A DNA stretch of 14,577 bases. Source: a virus. The notes under the pieces are model-generated. The model was not told where the DNA came from. It did no database searches and saw only the letters and a list, made by a program, of their open reading frames with translations. This document shows, one piece after another, positions 832 through 11,156 of this stretch (its first letter is position 1; each line of letters starts with the position of its first letter). The translations under genes and the position numbers were made by a program. Location: the UHGV virus genome UHGV-1333726. One strand, 5' to 3'.

Positions 832-1032
832 TTACTTATTCCCCATTCGCGCGTCGTGTTCCTCTTGCGCTCGCTTGTTCTCCTGTGATTTGAAGTAATA
901 ATTAACGGCAAATGTGCCTACGGTTGATAAGATACCCACAAAGACGGCAATGTCATTGATGGTTATCGCGCCGAAAAAAGCAGTTACGGCCCCAGTCACA
1001 TACGCACACGCCTCCCGTATTCTGTCGAACAT
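832..1032 (-). CDS. class II holin, pinholin-like (phage 21 S-type)
   Basis: 66 aa; ATG 1032 with GGAGGA 6 nt upstream; two TM segments (first is Gly/Ala/Thr-rich), basic/acidic C-terminal tail ...[15 protein letters not shown]; sits directly before the SAR endolysin. Confidence 0.8.
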
Positions 1033-1052
1033 AGATTTTCCTCCAACAAAGC

Positions 1053-1074
1053 AAAAACCCGGCGCGGGGCCGGG
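1053..1074 (-). terminator. intrinsic terminator-like hairpin (candidate tR')
   Basis: On the minus strand CCCGGC-cccgc-GCCGGG (6-bp all-GC stem, 5-nt loop) followed by TTTTT, ending 8 nt before the holin Shine-Dalgarno. Confidence 0.55.
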
Positions 1075-1102
1075 TAGTTACAGTTTCGCATTGTTAGGTA
1101 AT

Positions 1103-1131
1103 ATTTTAATCTGTTTGTTTTCGACCCACAA
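1103..1131 (-). promoter_or_regulatory. candidate sigma70-type promoter (pR'-like) upstream of lysis genes
   Basis: Minus strand TTGTGG (1131-1126), 17-nt spacer, TAAAAT (1108-1103); weak -35, good -10 and spacing; lies in the only intergenic gap before the holin. Confidence 0.3.
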
Positions 1132-1139
1132 ATACGGCT

Positions 1140-1310
1140 TTACGCAGTTCTGTATATCAGTCCGTTATCAAGCAATGTTTGCATGTGTTCGCGATCCATA
1201 CCGCTTGATTCCCAATATTTATTGCCCGCGCTTTGTGTTAACACCCTATCACCTTTAACCAAGTAAGCGAAGTTAAATAACTTGTGCAAATAGATACCGT
1301 CTTCAATCAT
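1140..1310 (-). CDS. hypothetical protein (56 aa)
   Basis: ATG 1310 overlaps the TGA of the upstream gene (ATGA); translation MIEDGIYLHKLFNFAYLVKGDRVLTQSAGNKYWESSGMDREHMQTLLDNGLIYRTA; below the ORF-track size cutoff, found by manual translation. Confidence 0.45.
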   Translation of the reverse strand: MIEDGIYLHKLFNFAYLVKGDRVLTQSAGNKYWESSGMDREHMQTLLDNGLIYRTA

Positions 1311-1501
1311 TTCTTGCGCTCCTTAATGGCTCGCTTGATCTGCACTACCGTCGCATCAAAGAAAGCAAGAAAAACCAATACAGGCCAAAAAGGGATCTCA
1401 AATCCGCAACGGTCAGCCTCACTAACCTTAATAAAACATGACATCAAGATCGCGCCAGCGATATAAAGCAAAACAGTCACAGCAATAAGGCATTCAATCA
1501 T
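1307..1501 (-). CDS. small two-TM membrane protein (64 aa)
   Basis: ATG 1501 with GAGGA 6 nt upstream, 4 nt after stop of upstream gene; two hydrophobic segments (IAVTVLLYIAGAILM, FWPVLVFLAFF) and Lys-rich C-terminus; ORF-track start at 1543 overlaps the upstream gene by 50 nt and is less likely. Confidence 0.55.
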   Translation of the reverse strand: MIECLIAVTVLLYIAGAILMSCFIKVSEADRCGFEIPFWPVLVFLAFFDATVVQIKRAIKERKK

Positions 1502-1748
1502 AATCATCCTCATCGTCCTCATGTTCAGCCAGGAACTCATCAACCACTCTGTAAGTCACTGGCGGGATGTATTCGAAATCATCAGAATCAAGATCAAGCG
1601 TCCGGCTGTCGCCGTCATCGTCCAGCGTATTCATCCCTAATTCACCGAAAGGGCCGTACCCAATGTGGCCCAGGTATTCACATCCAATCGTAAAGCCAGG
1701 ATATTCGCCTTTGCACCTGATTTTGTATGGCTTATTTGATGCGCTCAA
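1494..1748 (-). CDS. hypothetical highly acidic protein
   Basis: Frame has no ATG near the upstream stop; TTG 1748 preceded by GGGGGAA is the best start (GTG 1769 alternative); C-terminal half is extremely acidic (DDDGDSRTLDLDSDDFEY...EHEDDEDDYD). Confidence 0.5.
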   Translation of the reverse strand: MSASNKPYKIRCKGEYPGFTIGCEYLGHIGYGPFGELGMNTLDDDGDSRTLDLDSDDFEYIPPVTYRVVDEFLAEHEDDEDDYD

Positions 1749-2055
1749 TTTTAATTCCCCCTGCCACACCTTCAGTCATTTTGTATTCAGCGATCAGTTC
1801 AGCACCAACCAATTCCACTTCATCACCAGGGAATGGATTAAGTTCCAATGATACTAAGATAAAAAATTTAACGTGATCTGCATTATCAAGATCTTTCACG
1901 TCAAAAGGAGGTTCAGCTACATGGAAGCACTTAACGCCATCCTCTTTGTCAGTGGCTACACGGAAACATGCGCCAGGCTGTCCGGCGAATTGTCCATTTT
2001 TTTCATCTTCTGGAAAAGTGCCACGGAAAACTTTAACGCTGATAAATTTAGACAT
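1732..2055 (-). CDS. hypothetical protein (107 aa)
   Basis: ATG 2055 with AAGGAGA upstream, 3 nt after the upstream stop. Confidence 0.6.
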   Translation of the reverse strand: MSKFISVKVFRGTFPEDEKNGQFAGQPGACFRVATDKEDGVKCFHVAEPPFDVKDLDNADHVKFFILVSLELNPFPGDEVELVGAELIAEYKMTEGVAGGIKIERIK

Positions 2056-2058
2056 TTG

Positions 2059-2316
2059 TCATTCTCCTTCGTAAAGAATTGCAACCAGTTCGGCATCTGT
2101 TAGCGTGTTGTGATCTTTATAAGTACCGTAGCGGGCAACGAAAGCTATTTCGCCAGCTATTTTCCGCCACATAGGGATTGACTCATTAAAATAGGTATTC
2201 TCCATTGCCTCCTTGTATGCCAGTTCATAAAAACGACCGCGATTTACATCTTCAATAACGCGGCTGTATGTGCCATCAACGCTACTAACGCCGCGCCACA
2301 GCCTGAACACAACCAT
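2059..2316 (-). CDS. hypothetical protein (85 aa)
   Basis: ATG 2316 with GGAG upstream, 2 nt after the upstream stop. Confidence 0.6.
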   Translation of the reverse strand: MVVFRLWRGVSSVDGTYSRVIEDVNRGRFYELAYKEAMENTYFNESIPMWRKIAGEIAFVARYGTYKDHNTLTDAELVAILYEGE

Positions 2317-2318
2317 AA

Positions 2319-2693
2319 TTAAAACTCCGCACCAGGTAAGCTACGCGCTTTATTTACAACATCTTGTTTTAACAATAATAGTGAGTGATAATGCATGTTA
2401 AACATTCTGCAAAGTGGTGTTTCACTATTTTCTGACTTAATTTTGAATAACTGGTTTGCAGTAAAAATCATGTCGTCGTCTGTTATGTATAACCAGTCGC
2501 CGCGCTTACCAACAACAATATGAGATTTTCCCCAACTATCTTTAAATTCATAATTGCAGAAAACATCACCTTTAGGAACTTCAACAAAACAGCACGCAAT
2601 GAACTTATTGCTTTTCATGATTTTGCCCATCCGCCTTTCTGTGCTCATATATAACAAAACGGCGCTGCCTGAACAATGCCATTTCGTATACAT
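2319..2693 (-). CDS. hypothetical protein, start uncertain
   Basis: Long open frame; first ATG at 2693, other in-frame ATGs at 2648, 2630, 2618; none has a clear Shine-Dalgarno. Confidence 0.45.
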   Translation of the reverse strand: MYTKWHCSGSAVLLYMSTERRMGKIMKSNKFIACCFVEVPKGDVFCNYEFKDSWGKSHIVVGKRGDWLYITDDDMIFTANQLFKIKSENSETPLCRMFNMHYHSLLLLKQDVVNKARSLPGAEF

Positions 2694-2729
2694 TGTGATA
2701 CTAGTCACATTTTGCGCAATTAACTTTTA

Positions 2730-2981
2730 TCAGAAAACCCCTTTATAATCGACCGTGTACTTTGCAACCAATTTCCATTCACAATAGTTTTCCATGTCGC
2801 GCGGTTGCCACCCTTTCATCCCGACAGCACTCCGCGCAGCGTGACGGCGACAATTGTCGTTGAGGTCCACAACACACCACGGCTGAAGGACAAACATGTA
2901 TCGCGCCTCGTTAACCAGGATCGCCATCTGCTTTCCTGTTGCCTTATCTTTTGCCCGGAAATAACTTACCCTGATTTTCAT
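2730..2981 (-). CDS. hypothetical protein, start uncertain
   Basis: ATG 2981 (GAGG upstream) overlaps upstream gene by 38 nt; alternative ATG 2927 with AGGAAAG upstream gives a 65-aa product without overlap. Confidence 0.45.
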   Translation of the reverse strand: MKIRVSYFRAKDKATGKQMAILVNEARYMFVLQPWCVVDLNDNCRRHAARSAVGMKGWQPRDMENYCEWKLVAKYTVDYKGVF

Positions 2982-3192
2982 TTTTAATAACCTCAATCAA
3001 CATTTCTTCTTCCAGGTTGGCAGGACGTTTACGGAATACCCCGGCAAAAGCCAGATCGTCGAGAAGGTCTTTGCTCTTAAATAGCCATTCCTTCATTATT
3101 ACCCCATCGTCACTGCGATATACCACGCCGTTTTTCAGAAAATAAAACGTGCGCGTGTCTGTCTGTAGGTATAGATCTTCGTAAACGTCCAT
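2944..3192 (-). CDS. hypothetical protein (82 aa)
   Basis: ATG 3192, 4 nt after the upstream stop. Confidence 0.5.
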   Translation of the reverse strand: MDVYEDLYLQTDTRTFYFLKNGVVYRSDDGVIMKEWLFKSKDLLDDLAFAGVFRKRPANLEEEMLIEVIKNENQGKLFPGKR

Positions 3193-3196
3193 GATG

Positions 3197-3424
3197 TTAA
3201 CTCTCTACCACTTCCAGCCCGCGCCCCTTGTCGCCAACGAAGTCGCCCAGGCTGAACGTATACGACCATGCCGGATTAATGTAATGGTCATCAGCGCCCG
3301 CGGCAATTAGGTCAGCACCGTTAATCATGCAAGTGACATCATCGCCATGAACGACATTAACCACCTTACCAACAACCTGTTTCAGTGACGGATAACCGTG
3401 ATCGTGCAAGAATTTGACTTTCAC
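3197..3424 (-). CDS. hypothetical protein (75 aa)
   Basis: GTG 3424 overlaps TGA of upstream gene (GTGA); ORF-track start 3439 is TTG. Confidence 0.5.
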   Translation of the reverse strand: MKVKFLHDHGYPSLKQVVGKVVNVVHGDDVTCMINGADLIAAGADDHYINPAWSYTFSLGDFVGDKGRGLEVVES

Positions 3425-3654
3425 TCTTCTGTCCCCCAACGCTCAATGCTGATTAAAAAGTCCCGGATGGCGTGGCGTTCGTCGCGCGTTGGTTTGCGCT
3501 TCCGGTAGATCTTGAAGTCGAACCATTCTTTTTCCTGTTCAAAATCCAAATCGTAAGCAACAGCTTCAATGTATCCGCATTCGTGATACCAGTACGCCAC
3601 GCCAGCACGGACAAAAAAGCGGGTTTTATCCCGCTTGTGTTCATAGATACGCAT
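3421..3654 (-). CDS. hypothetical protein (77 aa)
   Basis: ATG 3654 with GGGGTG upstream, 10 nt after the upstream stop; ORF-track start 3699 would overlap upstream gene by 35 nt. Confidence 0.5.
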   Translation of the reverse strand: MRIYEHKRDKTRFFVRAGVAYWYHECGYIEAVAYDLDFEQEKEWFDFKIYRKRKPTRDERHAIRDFLISIERWGTEE

Positions 3655-3664
3655 ATTCACCCCG

Positions 3665-3895
3665 TTAAGCAGTTGTGTAGCTGTCCACCAGCTTTTCATC
3701 TTTCATTCTGGCAAGCTGTGCGATGCTCATCGTGTAGCCGCCATCAGAGAAAAGCCATTCCGCAGCCTTGCGACGAAAAGCAATATCATCATGGTTACGT
3801 GTCCATGTAGCGATCACAACGCGTTTCCCGTTAGTGGCGAACATAGACAATTCATTATCAACAACGTCAATAGCACACCAGATTTTTAATTCCAT
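3665..3895 (-). CDS. hypothetical protein (76 aa)
   Basis: ATG 3895 with GGTGA upstream, 10-nt overlap with upstream gene. Confidence 0.55.
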   Translation of the reverse strand: MELKIWCAIDVVDNELSMFATNGKRVVIATWTRNHDDIAFRRKAAEWLFSDGGYTMSIAQLARMKDEKLVDSYTTA

Positions 3896-4251
3896 GATTT
3901 ATCACCGTAGATCTTGAATAGTTCGCGTTCTTCCTGATCTTCAAATATCCCTATGTGCAGGTCACGCAGGCGGCGCATTGTGCGGAATCGCGGCCTGAAC
4001 TCCTGGCTACGTTTAATGTATTTGCCGCCAATTGAATAGATATGCCCGTATGAGTACCATCTATTCCCTACCCATATTTCATATTCTTTTCCTTCGTAAT
4101 TAAATTTTATCGTTAGCTCGCCAACCTCAACTATTAACCCTTTGTCGATGATGTCATTAAGCATTTCGTCCCATTCTTTGAGGAATGGTTGTTGATAAAA
4201 ACCAAAAAGCGTATTCACAGCATGGCAGAGGTAATCAATGATTATTTGCAT
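3886..4251 (-). CDS. hypothetical protein (121 aa)
   Basis: ATG 4251, 4 nt after the upstream stop. Confidence 0.6.
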   Translation of the reverse strand: MQIIIDYLCHAVNTLFGFYQQPFLKEWDEMLNDIIDKGLIVEVGELTIKFNYEGKEYEIWVGNRWYSYGHIYSIGGKYIKRSQEFRPRFRTMRRLRDLHIGIFEDQEERELFKIYGDKSWN

Positions 4252-4255
4252 ATTG

Positions 4256-4468
4256 TCACCACATCATATAATAAACGTTCTCGTCAGCTAACATGTCAGC
4301 TACATCCTGCGTCATGTGTCTGGCATTAAGGAAATAGTCATCACTATGCCATTCCCTTACAAGCATGCGCGCCCATTTACGGCGCTGGCGCTTATTGCGT
4401 CGCAGATCATCAAAAGCCTTTAACGCTTTGTCATACGCCCTTACCAGGCGTTTACGGTTACTTTTCAT
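4256..4468 (-). CDS. hypothetical basic protein (70 aa)
   Basis: ATG 4468 with GAGAGGTG upstream (ORF-track start 4474 is GTG); Arg/Lys-rich N-terminal half. Confidence 0.5.
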   Translation of the reverse strand: MKSNRKRLVRAYDKALKAFDDLRRNKRQRRKWARMLVREWHSDDYFLNARHMTQDVADMLADENVYYMMW

Positions 4469-4769
4469 TTTCACCTCTCAACATCCAATTTCTGTCACAT
4501 TTAATTGCGAATACCTTAACAGGATCAGGGCCGAATAATGGATGAGTGATAGTTTTTACTTCGTACCCAAAATAAGGAAGGTTAATAATCCTGTGTTTTT
4601 CGTGGTTGGCAGGGTATCCCCATTTAATAATCAGGCGTTCATATTCCCGCCCTTCCAGACGTTTACGCCAATAGTCATTATAAAGCCGGTATTCCTCCAC
4701 CTTCTTTCCAGTCCATATGGCGTGGAAATATTCCCCTTTCAGATTCAAATGCAGGTGTTTATTTGCCAT
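4458..4769 (-). CDS. ASCH-like (DUF3850-type) domain protein
   Basis: ATG 4769 with AGGA upstream; N-terminus HLHLNLKGEYFHAIWTGKKVEEYRLYND matches the ASCH pattern (P/GxYFxxI..G.K..E.R.ND) as I recall it. Confidence 0.5.
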   Translation of the reverse strand: MANKHLHLNLKGEYFHAIWTGKKVEEYRLYNDYWRKRLEGREYERLIIKWGYPANHEKHRIINLPYFGYEVKTITHPLFGPDPVKVFAIKCDRNWMLRGENEK

Positions 4770-5028
4770 CACTATGATCCTGTAAACAGTCGTTATAGCC
4801 TTCAATGTATCCGGTTAATCCAGTGTTACTAACTGACCAGTCAGCCGAACGGCGCTTGATGGCCTTGTCCATAGTCATTTCGTCGCCTGGTCCGCCTGGC
4901 TCAATGTATTTTCTTAAATCCCTTGCTATCCACGCCCTTAATTGTTGCGTATCACCGCACAACCGAGCGGATAATGTCAGGTCATTAACCAGCTTTGCAA
5001 ATAGATGTTCTTTTAATTTAGGCTTCAT
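4759..5028 (-). CDS. hypothetical protein (89 aa)
   Basis: ATG 5028 with GAGG upstream; ORF-track start 5061 is GTG. Confidence 0.5.
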   Translation of the reverse strand: MKPKLKEHLFAKLVNDLTLSARLCGDTQQLRAWIARDLRKYIEPGGPGDEMTMDKAIKRRSADWSVSNTGLTGYIEGYNDCLQDHSDGK

Positions 5029-5365
5029 TGTCGTCAACCTCGAAATACTGCTTAATAGCACGTTTGACGTTCATTTCACGCTGATAATTGTTATCGCTAT
5101 AGATTGCGGCTGCCGATACGTGATCGATAATTTGCTGTAATAAATCAGGATGAATTTTTATTTTTTCATCAAGGACAATGCGCGATGGCTTAGGTGCGGT
5201 AGCATTATCATTAACGATTTCTATCTCACCACGACCACCGCATCGCGGGCAAACAAACTTATCACCTTGATACAGCATGAATCCGCGACCTTTTTCAGTT
5301 TTTACGACCATGCCATCGTCGTCGCAGTTTTCGCAATACAGCCACCCAATATTAAGTATTTTCAT
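5018..5365 (-). CDS. zinc-ribbon protein (CxxC...CxxCGGRG), start uncertain
   Basis: ATG 5365 preferred (14-nt overlap with upstream gene; ATG 5428 would overlap by 77 nt); contains CENC...CPRCGGRGE pairs. Confidence 0.5.
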   Translation of the reverse strand: MKILNIGWLYCENCDDDGMVVKTEKGRGFMLYQGDKFVCPRCGGRGEIEIVNDNATAPKPSRIVLDEKIKIHPDLLQQIIDHVSAAAIYSDNNYQREMNVKRAIKQYFEVDDNEA

Positions 5366-5558
5366 TGTCTTTATTCCGTCCGTAAATATGTACTGGCTCA
5401 ACCGGTACGGCTGGCAATTCACCATCATTTAACGCGCTTGCCATGCCTAATATTAAACGCGCTTCAGCACCAGTGACTTTCTTACACCATGCACCGCCTG
5501 TTTTATCTTCGAACAAGATAACAGCAAACTGATCGTTTATTTCCAGCTTATCCATCAT
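5352..5558 (-). CDS. hypothetical protein (68 aa)
   Basis: ATG 5558 overlaps the TGA of Q (ATGA); second ATG at 5555. Confidence 0.5.
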   Translation of the reverse strand: MMDKLEINDQFAVILFEDKTGGAWCKKVTGAEARLILGMASALNDGELPAVPVEPVHIYGRNKDNENT

Positions 5559-6049
5559 TCACCCCGTGTTACTCGTTTGATTTCGTTGTCAGCCCGCGCC
5601 TCTTCTTTGAACAATTCAGCAATGGCGTCTTCATAGAAAGCGCGGTATTTCTTCCACCACGTTGATCGGCTTACCGGGAAAACAAGCTGATTAACCGCCC
5701 GCCGTACAAGATCTACAGGGAAACGCGAGTACCCGCGCCCGCCGCAATGCTGGCACGTTTTGAACACTGGCATTTCCGCCGCTTCACTGGCTGCTTTATC
5801 CGGTACTTCGCCACGGCCCTTGCATTGTTTACAATGATTGCGAACTGTCCCATGCCCCTTGCATTTTTTGCAAAGGTGTTTTTCTCCGTATTCGTCAAAC
5901 GTAAATTTATATCCGCCGCACTCCATACAAGTTTTTTCCGTCGCGGCACTCTGGCAATAATCCCGAAATGCGAAAACGGCAACAAGAATAATGAGATCAT
6001 TGCGTTTGGCCTCGTCCAGTTCCATAACGTATTCATAATCTTTTGCCAT
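5555..6049 (-). CDS. Q: late-gene antiterminator Q, zinc-finger (82/QuuD-like) type
   Basis: ATG 6049 with AAGGG upstream (ORF-track start 6073 is TTG); FAFRDYCQSAATEKTC, CQHCGGRGYSRFPVDLVRRAV and C-terminal ...STWWKKYRAFYEDAIAELFKEEARADNEI resemble recalled Q82/QuuD-family motifs; position downstream of ninG/rusA/ninH-like genes fits. Confidence 0.7.
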   Translation of the reverse strand: MAKDYEYVMELDEAKRNDLIILVAVFAFRDYCQSAATEKTCMECGGYKFTFDEYGEKHLCKKCKGHGTVRNHCKQCKGRGEVPDKAASEAAEMPVFKTCQHCGGRGYSRFPVDLVRRAVNQLVFPVSRSTWWKKYRAFYEDAIAELFKEEARADNEIKRVTRGE

Positions 6050-6083
6050 AGCCCTTAAACGCTCTGTAAGCAAAACTACGGCC

Positions 6084-6206
6084 TTATGCTTTTCCTGTTT
6101 TTAAAATAGAAAGATTGGCCATTGTTATCCCTAATTCATCTGCAAGCTCACCAAGAGGTTTTTTGCGCTTGGCCATTATTACATCCAATCTTACAATTAT
6201 AGACAT
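6084..6206 (-). CDS. short NinH-like helix-turn-helix protein (40 aa)
   Basis: ATG 6206 with GGAGG 8 nt upstream; MSIIVRLDVIMAKRKKPLGELADELGITMANLSILKTGKA has an HTH-like core; small HTH gene directly before Q as for lambda ninH; manually found. Confidence 0.35.
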   Translation of the reverse strand: MSIIVRLDVIMAKRKKPLGELADELGITMANLSILKTGKA

Positions 6207-6218
6207 CTGCAGCGCCTC

Positions 6219-6362
6219 CTATATGGTTAACTTTTGTTCCTCCTGAATCTTATATCCAACCTTAAACACTTGTGCTATAAACAGAAGAGATATACCAAAT
6301 ATGCCAAGGATAACATCTACACTTAAGATTGTTTCACACTCAAACCCGTCTATAGCCAACAT
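6219..6362 (-). CDS. possible small hydrophobic peptide (47 aa), next to N run
   Basis: ATG 6362 directly after the N run 6371-6380; MLAIDGFECETILSVDVILGIFGISLLFIAQVF... has one TM-like segment; the longer ORF-track version crosses the N run. Confidence 0.25.
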   Translation of the reverse strand: MLAIDGFECETILSVDVILGIFGISLLFIAQVFKVGYKIQEEQKLTI

Positions 6363-6432
6363 CTCTATCGNNNNNNNNNNGATAAACGCGGTGATTTTGG
6401 GAAGTGGAATTTGAGAATAGATTCCAGATTCA

Positions 6433-6615
6433 TTACTTGCCCCCGTAACGCGCAACAAGTCTTTTGCGATCAGATATTGCTTGCACCAACTTTCTTTCAA
6501 GCTCTTTAAGCGCAAGCAATTCTCGCATGTGGAAAGCCTGTATTTGTCGCACAGTCTCTAAATCATGCTCATCGCGCTGAATATCTATTTGCAGATCTTT
6601 AATTTCGTTTTTCAT
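6433..6615 (-). CDS. hypothetical protein (60 aa), predicted helical
   Basis: ATG 6615 overlaps TGA of upstream gene (ATGA); heptad-like charged sequence. Confidence 0.45.
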   Translation of the reverse strand: MKNEIKDLQIDIQRDEHDLETVRQIQAFHMRELLALKELERKLVQAISDRKRLVARYGGK

Positions 6616-8044: not shown

Positions 8045-8161
8045 AATGCTCTCTCCTTTTCAGGTGATTTCTACGCATTTCAGCGCTGCCGGATTTTTAA
8101 AGAGCATTTTGTTTGCTTGAAGTATACAAAATGGATACACCAGAACAAGGCGAAAAGCGCC

Positions 8162-8203: not shown

Positions 8204-8962
8204 TCAGTCCGGTAAAACGCGGTCATGGTTAGCCAGGAATACAGCACGGGCAAAGCCACGCGGTGTTAGTGAGCGGATCATCTTTGTTCGTTTCGTCCTG
8301 CCTCCGGTTTTCGCCCACCCAGGGTTATCACCAGAGTTAAGATCTACAGGTCTAAAAAGCGGCTGCCTGAATCCGTTGCCGCACCATATGCAAGTTTTCT
8401 TCGTGTACGCGTCGCGCGGTGGGTAAACATCAGGGAAAGCAGGATGCTTGTCATCTTCCGGCAGGTAGCCACCGTAAGCGCAAGGATTGAAGATAAAATC
8501 CGGTTTACGCCATAGCGTTGACAGCACACCAACAGGATTCTCCACCATCCACGGCACGTTATACATGTTAGCCAGAGATTCAACCAACATTGCGTTTCTT
8601 GCCGCCCTATTCTGAAAACAAGGATCTTTCCTGTATTTATCAACGAACCAGCGAGCGCCTGACACAGCGAGATCGTCGCATGGAGGAAAGCCCAGGATAA
8701 TGTCAGGCCCTGGATAAACAGACAATTCAGGGGAGAACATTCCCAGGAAATGGCTATCAATCCAGATGTTAACGTATTCAATATTTGGATGAATGATTTT
8801 AACGCCTTCATAATCTCCGTGATTTGCGCCGTCATAGTTGAAGCAATAGCACTTATATCCAGCTTCCGCCCAATCTTTAACGGCGTACCCGCTGCCGTCG
8901 TACAGCGACCACACCACCCAACTTCTAAGCCAATTATTTAACCAATGTTTAGCCCTGCTCAT
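8204..8962 (-). CDS. compact C5-methyltransferase-fold protein (putative DNA cytosine-5 methyltransferase-like enzyme)
   Basis: ATG 8962 overlaps TGA of upstream gene (ATGA); motif I-like LYDGSGY (res 21-27), GFPPCDDLAVSGAR (res 91-104, cf. M.HhaI GFPCQAFSISGK) and VENP (res 140-143, ENV-like) in canonical order and spacing; only 252 aa, no obvious QRR or target-recognition domain. Confidence 0.6.
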   Translation of the reverse strand: MSRAKHWLNNWLRSWVVWSLYDGSGYAVKDWAEAGYKCYCFNYDGANHGDYEGVKIIHPNIEYVNIWIDSHFLGMFSPELSVYPGPDIILGFPPCDDLAVSGARWFVDKYRKDPCFQNRAARNAMLVESLANMYNVPWMVENPVGVLSTLWRKPDFIFNPCAYGGYLPEDDKHPAFPDVYPPRDAYTKKTCIWCGNGFRQPLFRPVDLNSGDNPGWAKTGGRTKRTKMIRSLTPRGFARAVFLANHDRVLPD

Positions 8963-9462: not shown

Positions 9463-9934
9463 TTTTATGATCCTTCGGTGTATACAATAAAGCCTCTTTA
9501 TTAAACCGCCAGCCGTTACCAAGCTGGAAGCTACCATTCATTATTACTTCACCACTAGCGATTAGGTCGCCTGGTATTGAGGTTTTCTTACAGCGGCAAT
9601 TTAACGACATATCAAAATCACCCTGTTTTTTCTTTTGCTCTTCCTCCCGCTCCGCTAATATTTGCTCCGCTTTTAGCGCGTTGTAAGCAATAAGGTCTAT
9701 GAGAGTGTCGAGCGGATCGCTTCCATTGCTTAAAATGGCCTCTAATCGCGCCTCCTTGAGGCAAATCATTAGATCCCATACATCAAGCGGGGTTAAACTT
9801 GTCCCCTTCTTAGCGTTGTAAATAGTGGCTATTTTTGGCGCTGATTTTTCTTCTTTTCGATCGTATCCGTTTTGTTCTCCTCTTGCCTCGATAGTTTCAG
9901 CCGCAAGTCTCAGCAATTCAGCCGCTTTATTCAT
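9443..9934 (-). CDS. hypothetical protein (163 aa), helical N-terminal domain
   Basis: ATG 9934 with GAGGTG upstream, 2 nt after dam stop (ORF-track start 9952 overlaps dam); conserved-looking LTPLDVWDLMICLKEARL segment; no family assigned. Confidence 0.55.
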   Translation of the reverse strand: MNKAAELLRLAAETIEARGEQNGYDRKEEKSAPKIATIYNAKKGTSLTPLDVWDLMICLKEARLEAILSNGSDPLDTLIDLIAYNALKAEQILAEREEEQKKKQGDFDMSLNCRCKKTSIPGDLIASGEVIMNGSFQLGNGWRFNKEALLYTPKDHKNGKGDD

Positions 9935-10466
9935 TTTCTGCACCTCTTGCATATAGCTCTTTACGTGTTATCTGCGTGAAAATACATTCATGTCTGCATC
10001 GTGGATGCCAGATCAAGAACAAGCTCCCTTTATTGTTTCCACTTGCTGGTTTACCTGTTGCAGCATTGATAAACGCCAGCCGCCCGCGCGTGATTAATCG
10101 GCATTCGTTTGCAGTCTCCACGCCGTTCATAAACCAGCTAACAGAAATGTCAGCGGGCAACAACATCACGCAACCGATGTGATTCCGTTGATGTTCGAGC
10201 GCCGCTTTATCAATAAATGGACCCGGATTTGAGTATGGCGGATTCATCCATACATATTCGCCAGGCATTGCCACCGCTCCCCACGGATAAGTAAGCGTGT
10301 CCATTTCTTCGGTTATATATCGCGGGATTAATGCGTTTGCCTTGTTTGCCGCCACGTCAGCGACAAATTCAAACTCGCGGTCCATTCCTCTAAAAACTGG
10401 TTTAGGTGTCTGCCACAGGTCTTTAATTTCCTTCGGTGTGCTGCTGCCTCCAAAATCATTTTTCAT
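9927..10466 (-). CDS. dam: phage Dam-family DNA N6-adenine methyltransferase
   Basis: ATG 10466 with AAGGGGGG upstream; N-terminal DLWQTPKPVF...FEFVADVAA and catalytic VWMNPPYS (NPPY variant of DPPY) are signatures of the phage Dam family. Confidence 0.85.
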   Translation of the reverse strand: MKNDFGGSSTPKEIKDLWQTPKPVFRGMDREFEFVADVAANKANALIPRYITEEMDTLTYPWGAVAMPGEYVWMNPPYSNPGPFIDKAALEHQRNHIGCVMLLPADISVSWFMNGVETANECRLITRGRLAFINAATGKPASGNNKGSLFLIWHPRCRHECIFTQITRKELYARGAENE

Positions 10467-11114: not shown

Positions 11115-11156
11115 AGGTGCAGCCCCGANNNNNNNNNNTTCCAGTCTTTATAGTGT

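Follow-up and report, generated by a model that had tools for sequence, protein, structure and literature searches.

A colinear region of small genes between Q and the lysis genes of an mEp021-like temperate coliphage

The mEpimmI phages were described in 2025 as Nus-dependent, non-lambdoid temperate coliphages (Negrete-Mendez et al., PMC11893012). Between Q and the holin gene they have a published "variable region", whose genes are treated, in the portions of that paper available to us, only as core or flexible hypothetical proteins (PMC11893012). Here we analyse the corresponding region of the UHGV virus genome UHGV-1333726, a stretch of 14,577 nucleotides (the window), in which 17 small co-directional genes on the minus strand (b01 to b17, the block) occupy positions 1140-5558 between Q and the lysis genes. 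The block has the flanks, gene families and gene order of the published variable region, including gp41 (b10), and the published annotations place predicted terminators where we find them in the window, which differs from the published phages by its own combination of 17 genes. The phage family has already been described, and within it the block is an accessory region of an ordinary type; we consider it probable that it represents the standard, ancestral and colinear Q-to-lysis small-gene region of the mEp021-like (mEpimmI) family and is transcribed early.

Three other described systems are close enough for comparison. With lambda the window shares a homologous Q and a similar late layout, in which a −10 sequence is followed by a pause element soon after the start, a terminator and the holin. 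However, lambda pR' lies about 45 bp past Q, whereas the corresponding candidate here lies 4.4 kb past Q and is preceded by the whole block, as the original prediction from the sequence had pointed out. The non-essential DNA of lambda (orf-64) and the toxin genes of Stx phages lie downstream of pR', within the late transcript. The distance from promoter to terminator is about 45 nt here and about 194 nt in lambda, and the module here abuts the holin. The nin region, and the ea region of P22 and Stx phages, resemble the block in their packed small genes, their N-antiterminated early operon and their mosaic presence and absence, and homologues of NinF, NinG and RusA lie just upstream of Q and the block in this phage. 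The present array nevertheless follows Q rather than preceding it, and none of the 17 block proteins matches a Nin or Ea Pfam family. The nin genes are largely dispensable. Accessory regions, finally, have been described as conserved flanks around a variable interior of small genes (Silas et al., bioRxiv 10.1101/2023.04.06.535777). The block shares these features, and some of its genes are common to unrelated phages, but about a third of its genes occur in at least 50 of 52 genomes under strong constraint, its variation is one of presence or absence within a fixed order, and it has no counter-defence marker gene. It also lacks the marks of a lambdoid moron (an own promoter and terminator, deviant composition), as its genes overlap or abut and its composition is that of the phage; a simple promoter scan found 16 promoter-like sites where 12.5 ± 3.6 are expected in shuffled sequence, a small excess.

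The window aligns over 73-87% of its 14.6 kb, at 86-89% (~88%) nucleotide identity, to seven complete genomes (mEp021, mEp010, mEp013, mEp044, mEp515, mEp554 and MagusPhagus). The order NinG-RusA-Q-block-holin-lysozyme is identical in the window and in the mEpimmI type phages, and by these sequence comparisons we assign the window to an mEp021-like (mEpimmI) temperate E. coli siphophage. Six independent gut-metagenome contigs match it at 99.4-100% identity and carry the identical 17 genes. The block is also present in 35 of 5426 complete E. coli genomes, in a single copy each and always in the chromosome.

To these relatives we added 46 further family members, collected from IMG/VR with the Q protein. 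Both anchors (Q and holin) were found in 52 genomes out of these 46, the seven annotated relatives and the window, and all family counts below refer to these 52. The counts were made with a crude open reading frame (ORF) finder and clustering at strict coverage, which replaced a first clustering that had merged adjacent genes. The original prediction had seen the block as inserted between Q and the lysis genes. The position is correct, the flanks being a PF03589 Q on one side and the holin and lysozyme on the other, but "inserted" is not, since every one of the 52 relatives has the interval, with gene order unchanged. From the stop of Q to the start of the holin gene this interval measures 2003-6801 bp (median 5379; 4522 bp in the window), and it holds 8-28 ORFs from ~59 ORF families, 27 of which occur in at least four genomes, in strictly colinear order. 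While Q and holin are conserved in all 52 of these loci reaching both, the content between them differs, so that the variability suspected from the single sequence is real; yet six of the 17 window genes (b06, b07, b08, b10, b11 and b17) are found in 50-52 of the 52 genomes and the other eleven in 23-48, and none is unique to the window. Genes are gained and lost chiefly at the b11/b12 junction, in a hotspot that starts at ~2712-2728, directly upstream of a conserved hairpin; relatives add 0.2-1 kb of genes there that have no counterpart in the window. Gene numbers accordingly vary, with 17 in the window, eight in mEp021 and about 25 in MagusPhagus. An all-against-all hhalign comparison showed no paralogy among the gene families of the window, and a repeat search found no repeats flanking or bounding the block.

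The ratio of nonsynonymous to synonymous substitution rates (dN/dS), computed for each gene against 3-7 relatives, lies between 0.02 and 0.54 for all 17, indicating purifying selection; the ORFs are therefore genuine genes rather than chance ORFs. Fourteen of the 17 match PHROG families without assigned function. The ORF list bears out 17 co-directional minus-strand frames, and after refinement of the starts by ribosome-binding sites and the annotations of relatives their sizes still span the predicted 56-121 amino acids (aa). An independent gene caller run on the identical metagenome contigs gave the same 17 models, except that b16 has 66 aa. The genes are tightly packed, as had been noticed: the stop codon of Q (TGA) overlaps the ATG of the next gene in the sequence ATGA, ten of 17 junctions overlap by 4-38 nt and five are gaps of at most 10 nt, the sole large intergenic gap being one of 111 nt at 2619-2729. 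The genes are given below, each with the number of the 52 genomes that have it at the end of the line (pI, isoelectric point).

5352-5558, minus strand: b01, 68 aa, acidic, phrog_35000, flexible; 47
5018-5365, minus strand: b02, 115 aa, zinc ribbon CENC...CPRCGGRG, flexible; 23
4759-5028, minus strand: b03, 89 aa, phrog_29262, dN/dS 0.05-0.31, flexible; 45
4458-4769, minus strand: b04, 103 aa, basic, putatively a divergent ASCH/PUA-like protein, phrog_625, flexible; 39
4256-4468, minus strand: b05, 70 aa, arginine-rich, pI 10.1, phrog_8758 (C-terminal half of the profile); 48
3886-4251, minus strand: b06, 121 aa, invariant RPRFRTMRRL motif, near-universal; 51
3665-3895, minus strand: b07, 76 aa, phrog_38280, universal; 52
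3421-3654, minus strand: b08, 77 aa, ORFan, most constrained gene of the block (dN/dS 0.02-0.06); 51
3197-3424, minus strand: b09, 75 aa, GTG start, phrog_5009; 48
2944-3192, minus strand: b10, 82 aa, homologue of mEp021 gp41 (annotated as a virion structural protein), universal; 52
2730-2981, minus strand: b11, 83 aa, basic, phrog_38609, dN/dS 0.03-0.18, universal; 52
2319-2618, minus strand: b12, 99 aa, no PHROG or Pfam match, flexible; 37
2059-2316, minus strand: b13, 85 aa, phrog_32200, flexible; 30
1732-2055, minus strand: b14, 107 aa, acidic, phrog_23107, flexible, highest dN/dS of the block (0.32-0.54); about 43
1494-1748, minus strand: b15, 84 aa, very acidic C-terminal tail, phrog_25234, flexible; 40
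1307-1501, minus strand: b16, 64 aa, one or two hydrophobic segments, phrog_10061; 45
1140-1310, minus strand: b17, 56 aa, phrog_15318; 50

Two copies of b17 stand in tandem just upstream of the late promoter candidate in many relatives and three in some (L002-L053); the window has one.

Spot counts over short stretches had suggested that the block is poorer in GC than its surroundings. This did not hold over the full length: GC is 43.6% in the block and 44.7% in the remainder of the window (nin-like genes 42.6%, lysis genes 46.7%), and the per-gene values of block and other genes do not separate (Mann-Whitney p = 0.52). Nor is codon usage distinct, with a correlation of r = 0.93 between the block and the other phage genes, where random halves of the non-block genes give r = 0.87 ± 0.03. 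Since both measures equal those of the rest of the phage, the block is no compositional island. The lowest GC among its genes is that of b12, at 35%.

Four putative regulatory elements bear on how the block may be transcribed.

8073-8106, minus strand: nutR2-like site, with a boxA-like TGCTCTTTAAAAA (8106-8094) and a boxB-like hairpin with an A-rich loop (8086-8073)
3611-3636, minus strand: terminator-like hairpin with T-run (AAGCGGGATAAAACCCGCTT TTTTGT), within codons 7-15 of b08
2626-2712, minus strand: conserved non-coding hairpin in the b11/b12 gap (−29.6 kcal/mol, z = −3.3)
1033-1139, minus strand: candidate late module of pR'/qut/tR' type, in the 107-nt spacer directly before the holin

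The late module has a −35-like TTGTGG (1131-1126), a 17-nt spacer, a −10 sequence TAAAAT (1108-1103) and, 7 nt further on, a −10-like AACAAT (1095-1090). There follow a hairpin called in a terminator scan (ACCCGGC-CCCGC-GCCGGGT, 1075-1057, with a 7-bp GC-rich stem and then a T-run) and the ribosome-binding site of the holin gene (GGAGG, 1044-1040). The folding z-score of the segment is −3.9. The corresponding layout of lambda pR' is TTGACT-17-TAAATT-6-AACGAT, where AACGAT is a −10-like element that pauses RNA polymerase for Q loading. Because the layout is the same, the first late gene being preceded by a −10, a −10-like pause element and an intrinsic terminator, the segment 1033-1139 is, by analogy, a strong candidate for a Q-dependent late promoter with its terminator. 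The −10, the stretch AACAAT-GCGAAA and the hairpin stem are invariant in the 52 genomes, also in two that have a different holin, and the hairpin loop varies; the adjoining b17 has a synonymous divergence (dS) of about 0.5-1.1.

At the other end, the nutR2-like site lies between the cytosine methyltransferase gene and the NinF-like gene, upstream of NinF-NinG-RusA-Q-block. The published nutR2, target of the N-like Gp17, is likewise located downstream of the cytosine methyltransferase gene (PMC11893012). By its position and motif resemblance the site at 8073-8106 is a candidate nutR2; the Gp17 gene itself is outside the window. The window thus holds both a PF03589 Q and a boxA/boxB-like site, as in the Q/nut antitermination of the mEpimmI group. 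A terminator-like GGCGCTTTTCGCC-TTGTT is seen about 40 nt upstream of the nutR2-like site.

Two further elements lie within the block. The b08 hairpin was also called in the terminator scan, and its 26 nt are identical in 51 of 54 copies; of the remaining three, one has a G·U change, another a loop change and the third (mEp010) a double compensatory change. Variation at third codon positions of b08 is at most 0.03 over codons 7-14, compared with 0.2-0.48 at many of codons 35-72. The hairpin could act as a regulated stop inside the early operon. The hairpin in the b11/b12 gap is homologous to the terminators T8 of mEp010, T10 of mEp554 and T7 of mEp044 predicted with ARNold. Neither the late promoter module nor the terminator embedded in b08 nor the b11/b12 hotspot appears in the portions of the mEpimmI paper available to us (PMC11893012).

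Most likely, Q and the block share a transcript, the block forming the distal end of the early rightward operon, since it lies downstream of the nutR2-like site and upstream of the pR'-like module; the lack of a gap between Q and b01 also supports co-transcription. RNA polymerase modified by Gp17 would read through the two internal terminator-like hairpins, in b08 and in the b11/b12 gap, and translation would probably be coupled, given that most stop and start codons overlap. The Q protein from this transcript would then act in trans, 4.4 kb downstream, and switch on the lysis and structural genes. The flexible genes are gained and lost singly, mostly at the b11/b12 hotspot. The conserved core probably supports the lytic programme, and the flexible genes are candidates for host-modifying or counter-defence roles.

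As expected from the first inspection, the products resisted functional assignment when all 17 were compared with Pfam, PHROGs, NCBIfam and PADLOC. None of the 17 scored above the Pfam threshold, and the concatenated 17-protein set gave no match in NCBIfam or PADLOC and none at E <= 1 among PDB sequences. In these general libraries (PDB, PADLOC and NCBIfam) we found no known counter-defence gene in or with the block, of the kind that marks accessory regions. Structure prediction, which had been proposed for every product, was run on two, b10 and b06, and gave no informative fold match. Sixteen of the products are small soluble proteins and the other is a membrane protein; almost all are restricted to this phage family.

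Among the individual assignments, the zinc-ribbon protein is b02, with a weak DnaJ_CXXCXGXG match (E = 7.7e-4) that falls below the Pfam cutoff. We considered b02 as a fragment derived from Q and rejected this, the two having in common only a CxxCxGxG motif. The acidic protein is b15 (pI 4.1) and the membrane protein b16 (grand average of hydropathy 0.97). The ASCH-like fold proposed for b04 stands as a resemblance to PF04266, confined to the first 25 profile positions and below threshold (13.9 bits against a cutoff of 21.2). Weak PF04266 matches recur in 17 of 28 diverse b04 relatives (best E = 0.006) and matches to the related DUF3850 in three, and source annotations label b04 homologues as ASCH domain-containing, RNA-binding or DUF3850 proteins. 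We therefore describe b04 as resembling the ASCH family at a level under the Pfam gathering threshold that defines membership. A profile search of PDB sequences with b04 returned only a chance match, to ribosomal protein L15. Homologues of b04 are widespread, in Stx, P22-like, P1, Jersey-like and other phages, where they usually stand beside EaA and DUF551 genes.

Homologues of b06, down to 40% identity, occur in P2-like Salmonella prophages (L061-L063, about 42%), in an early operon between a Dam-type methyltransferase gene and the replication gene gpA. It follows that b06 travels among unrelated temperate phages too. Its predicted structure (predicted local distance difference test, pLDDT, 80; predicted template modelling score, pTM, 0.70) matches in fold only uncharacterised viral proteins. 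For b08, a search of 1.84 billion representative proteins found no relatives beyond its own cluster and one truncated copy. Homologues of b09 occur in rV5-like (Vequintavirinae) lytic phages. An apparent b09 and b10 pair in these phages was rejected, because the tblastn alignment ran past a stop codon in the wrong frame, and only b09 is homologous there. Among cultured phages outside the family, homologues were found of b04 and b09 only. b10 occurs in E. coli sequences only. Its homologue gp41 of mEp021 was detected by mass spectrometry in CsCl-purified virions, is kept in all 48 published genomes and was proposed to be a RegA-like translational repressor (PMC11893012). A fold search with the predicted structure of b10 gave no informative match; it did not reproduce the RegA similarity and returned no known virion protein.

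Several observations weigh against an early-transcribed block. The assignment to the early operon draws on position, motifs and the lambda analogy, and the detection of the b10 homologue in virions would suit late expression no less than early expression. The candidate late promoter has a weak −35 (TTGTGG), which differs in a subgroup of relatives, and the simple promoter scan did not include this promoter in its list. The folding z-score of the b08 hairpin is modest (−1.7), and conservation at the 5' end of b08 can instead reflect constraints on translation initiation. The mEp021 terminators reported to have been shown experimentally (t1, t2 and t5) could not be mapped onto this region. As to the ancestral core, the presence counts may be off by a few genomes because the ORF finder was crude.

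The virion detection also raises the question whether the block instead has late or morphogenetic functions, with virion-associated, assembly or lysis-timing proteins. Besides gp41, found in purified virions and retained in the 48 published genomes (PMC11893012), the small membrane protein b16 close upstream of the holin and a core, b06-b11, of which each gene is present in at least 48 of 52 genomes would suit such functions. A Q-dependent late transcript would however exclude the block, because the conserved promoter/terminator module before the holin is downstream of the block. Moreover, only one of the eight mEp021 block proteins is annotated as a virion protein, no structural-protein family was matched, and b10 has no fold match to known virion proteins, so that we regard late functions as improbable. 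That the block might be a recent foreign insertion of moron type, specific to this genome, is suggested by the earlier spot GC counts and by the 35% GC of b12. It is contradicted by the comparative data, since the interval and its gene order exist in all 52 relatives; overall GC (43.6% against 44.7%) and codon usage (r = 0.93) are those of the phage, neither flanking repeats nor genes unique to the window were found, and the genes are translationally coupled, without promoters and terminators of their own. We find a recent insertion barely tenable.

The original prediction had further proposed that anti-defence or host-takeover genes accumulate here, that is, that the block is a hotspot of small, early-expressed inhibitors of bacterial immunity and host processes. 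Conserved flanks with variable content are indeed the published signature of accessory regions (bioRxiv 10.1101/2023.04.06.535777). The products are small proteins without known domains, among them the acidic b15 (pI 4.1) and the arginine-rich b05; b04, b06 and b09 are common to unrelated phage types, in early or accessory regions, and early timing is predicted for the block. Set against this are the lack of similarity to any PDB chain, solved anti-defence proteins included, and of any PADLOC or NCBIfam match, and two predicted structures without an informative match. Six genes are present in 50-52 of 52 genomes with dN/dS down to 0.02-0.18, unlike arms-race genes, and the block varies by presence and absence in a fixed order rather than by swapping among many alternatives. 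One product has a homologue reported in virions (PMC11893012), and the obvious anti-restriction candidates, the Dam and cytosine methyltransferases, are encoded upstream of the block. With its large, constrained, fixed-order core, no compositional signal and no recognisable counter-defence gene, the block is unlike an arms-race island, and we consider this proposal rather unlikely, an anti-defence role being plausible for the variable genes only. The original observation is real apart from its GC claim, and partly confirmed, and the interpretation attached to it is partly supported overall. More unusual is the conserved core: one of its products is reported in virions, and one of its genes has an embedded terminator. 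It is possible, though on balance we would not expect it, that the near-universal ORFans b06-b11, which are confined to the family, form an unrecognised required module, or that some of the flexible genes (b01-b05, b12-b16) are new defence inhibitors without known relatives. A b06-b11 module of this kind could, for instance, link early transcription with the late switch or carry a protein along with the DNA.

The Q gene next to the block is of the lambda family, as had been recognised, but the ORF at 5555-6073 taken for it is only the C-terminal part of a 240-aa gene, which is interrupted in the window.

5555-6100, minus strand: Q, C-terminal 181 codons (60-240), PF03589 at 72.9 bits against a cutoff of 26.7
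6077-6380: chimeric stretch within Q, 294 bp of Bacteroidales DNA (6077-6370) and 10 Ns, in place of 130 bp of Q
6381-6433, minus strand: Q, N-terminal codons (about the first 18-20), located by tblastn with the Q proteins of relatives

Q has 240-242 aa in the relatives. The 294-bp foreign stretch is 98.3% identical to a contig of the uncultured Bacteroidales UMGS715 and holds two truncated coding regions, one for the C-terminal part of a DUF2975 protein and the other for the beginning of an HTH_26 regulator. Over 18 nt (6077-6094) the window matches both the phage and the foreign sequence. The six near-identical contigs (99.4-100%) have an intact Q of 240 aa and lack the foreign stretch, and the chimeric junction was not found in Joint Genome Institute (JGI) metagenome contigs. 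Given the intact Q in these near-identical contigs and the Bacteroidales match, the interruption is a chimeric assembly join and not biology. Aligned with lambda Q over the full length, the intact Q of L054, a JGI contig nearly identical to the window, shows 35% identity (E = 1e-48); it has a 31-residue insertion with extra CxxC motifs. Two variants of Q occur in the family, differing in the zinc-finger segment (TCMECGGYKFTFDEYGEKHLCKKCKGHG versus VCPKCGGHGHLPNPYC...CARCGGKG). The −35 region of the late promoter candidate also has two forms, with no simple co-variation with the Q variant (mEp010 combines the variant Q with the window-type promoter).

The long ORFs of the window are all on the minus strand, in the order Dam methyltransferase, cytosine methyltransferase, NinF-, NinG- and RusA-like genes, Q, block, spacer, holin and lysozyme.

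9927-10466: Dam-type methyltransferase gene, upstream of the nut-like site
8204-8962: cytosine methyltransferase gene, upstream of the nut-like site
832-1032, minus strand: class II holin, first gene of the lysis cassette, PF16080 at 54.1 bits
339-830, minus strand: endolysin (lysozyme), PF00959 at 148.6 bits

By analogy, the two methyltransferases are the obvious candidates for restriction evasion by this phage, and both are encoded outside the block. Rfam and tRNA scans of the window gave no match. A second run of exactly 10 Ns lies at 11129-11138, and its flanks align continuously with L054, which points to a small mask or gap and not to a rearrangement.

The mEpimmI phages are reportedly as common as lambdoid phages in human gut samples, and about half of their genes are unassigned. 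The region between Q and the lysis genes holds about 30 recurrent families of small genes, each present in some phages and absent from others in nature. Compact, well delimited and naturally variable, it offers a convenient system for deletion and defence-panel screens. The proposed arrangement would also mean that the gene for a lambda-type Q can lie several kilobases away from the promoter on which the protein acts, which bears on the cis preference of Q.

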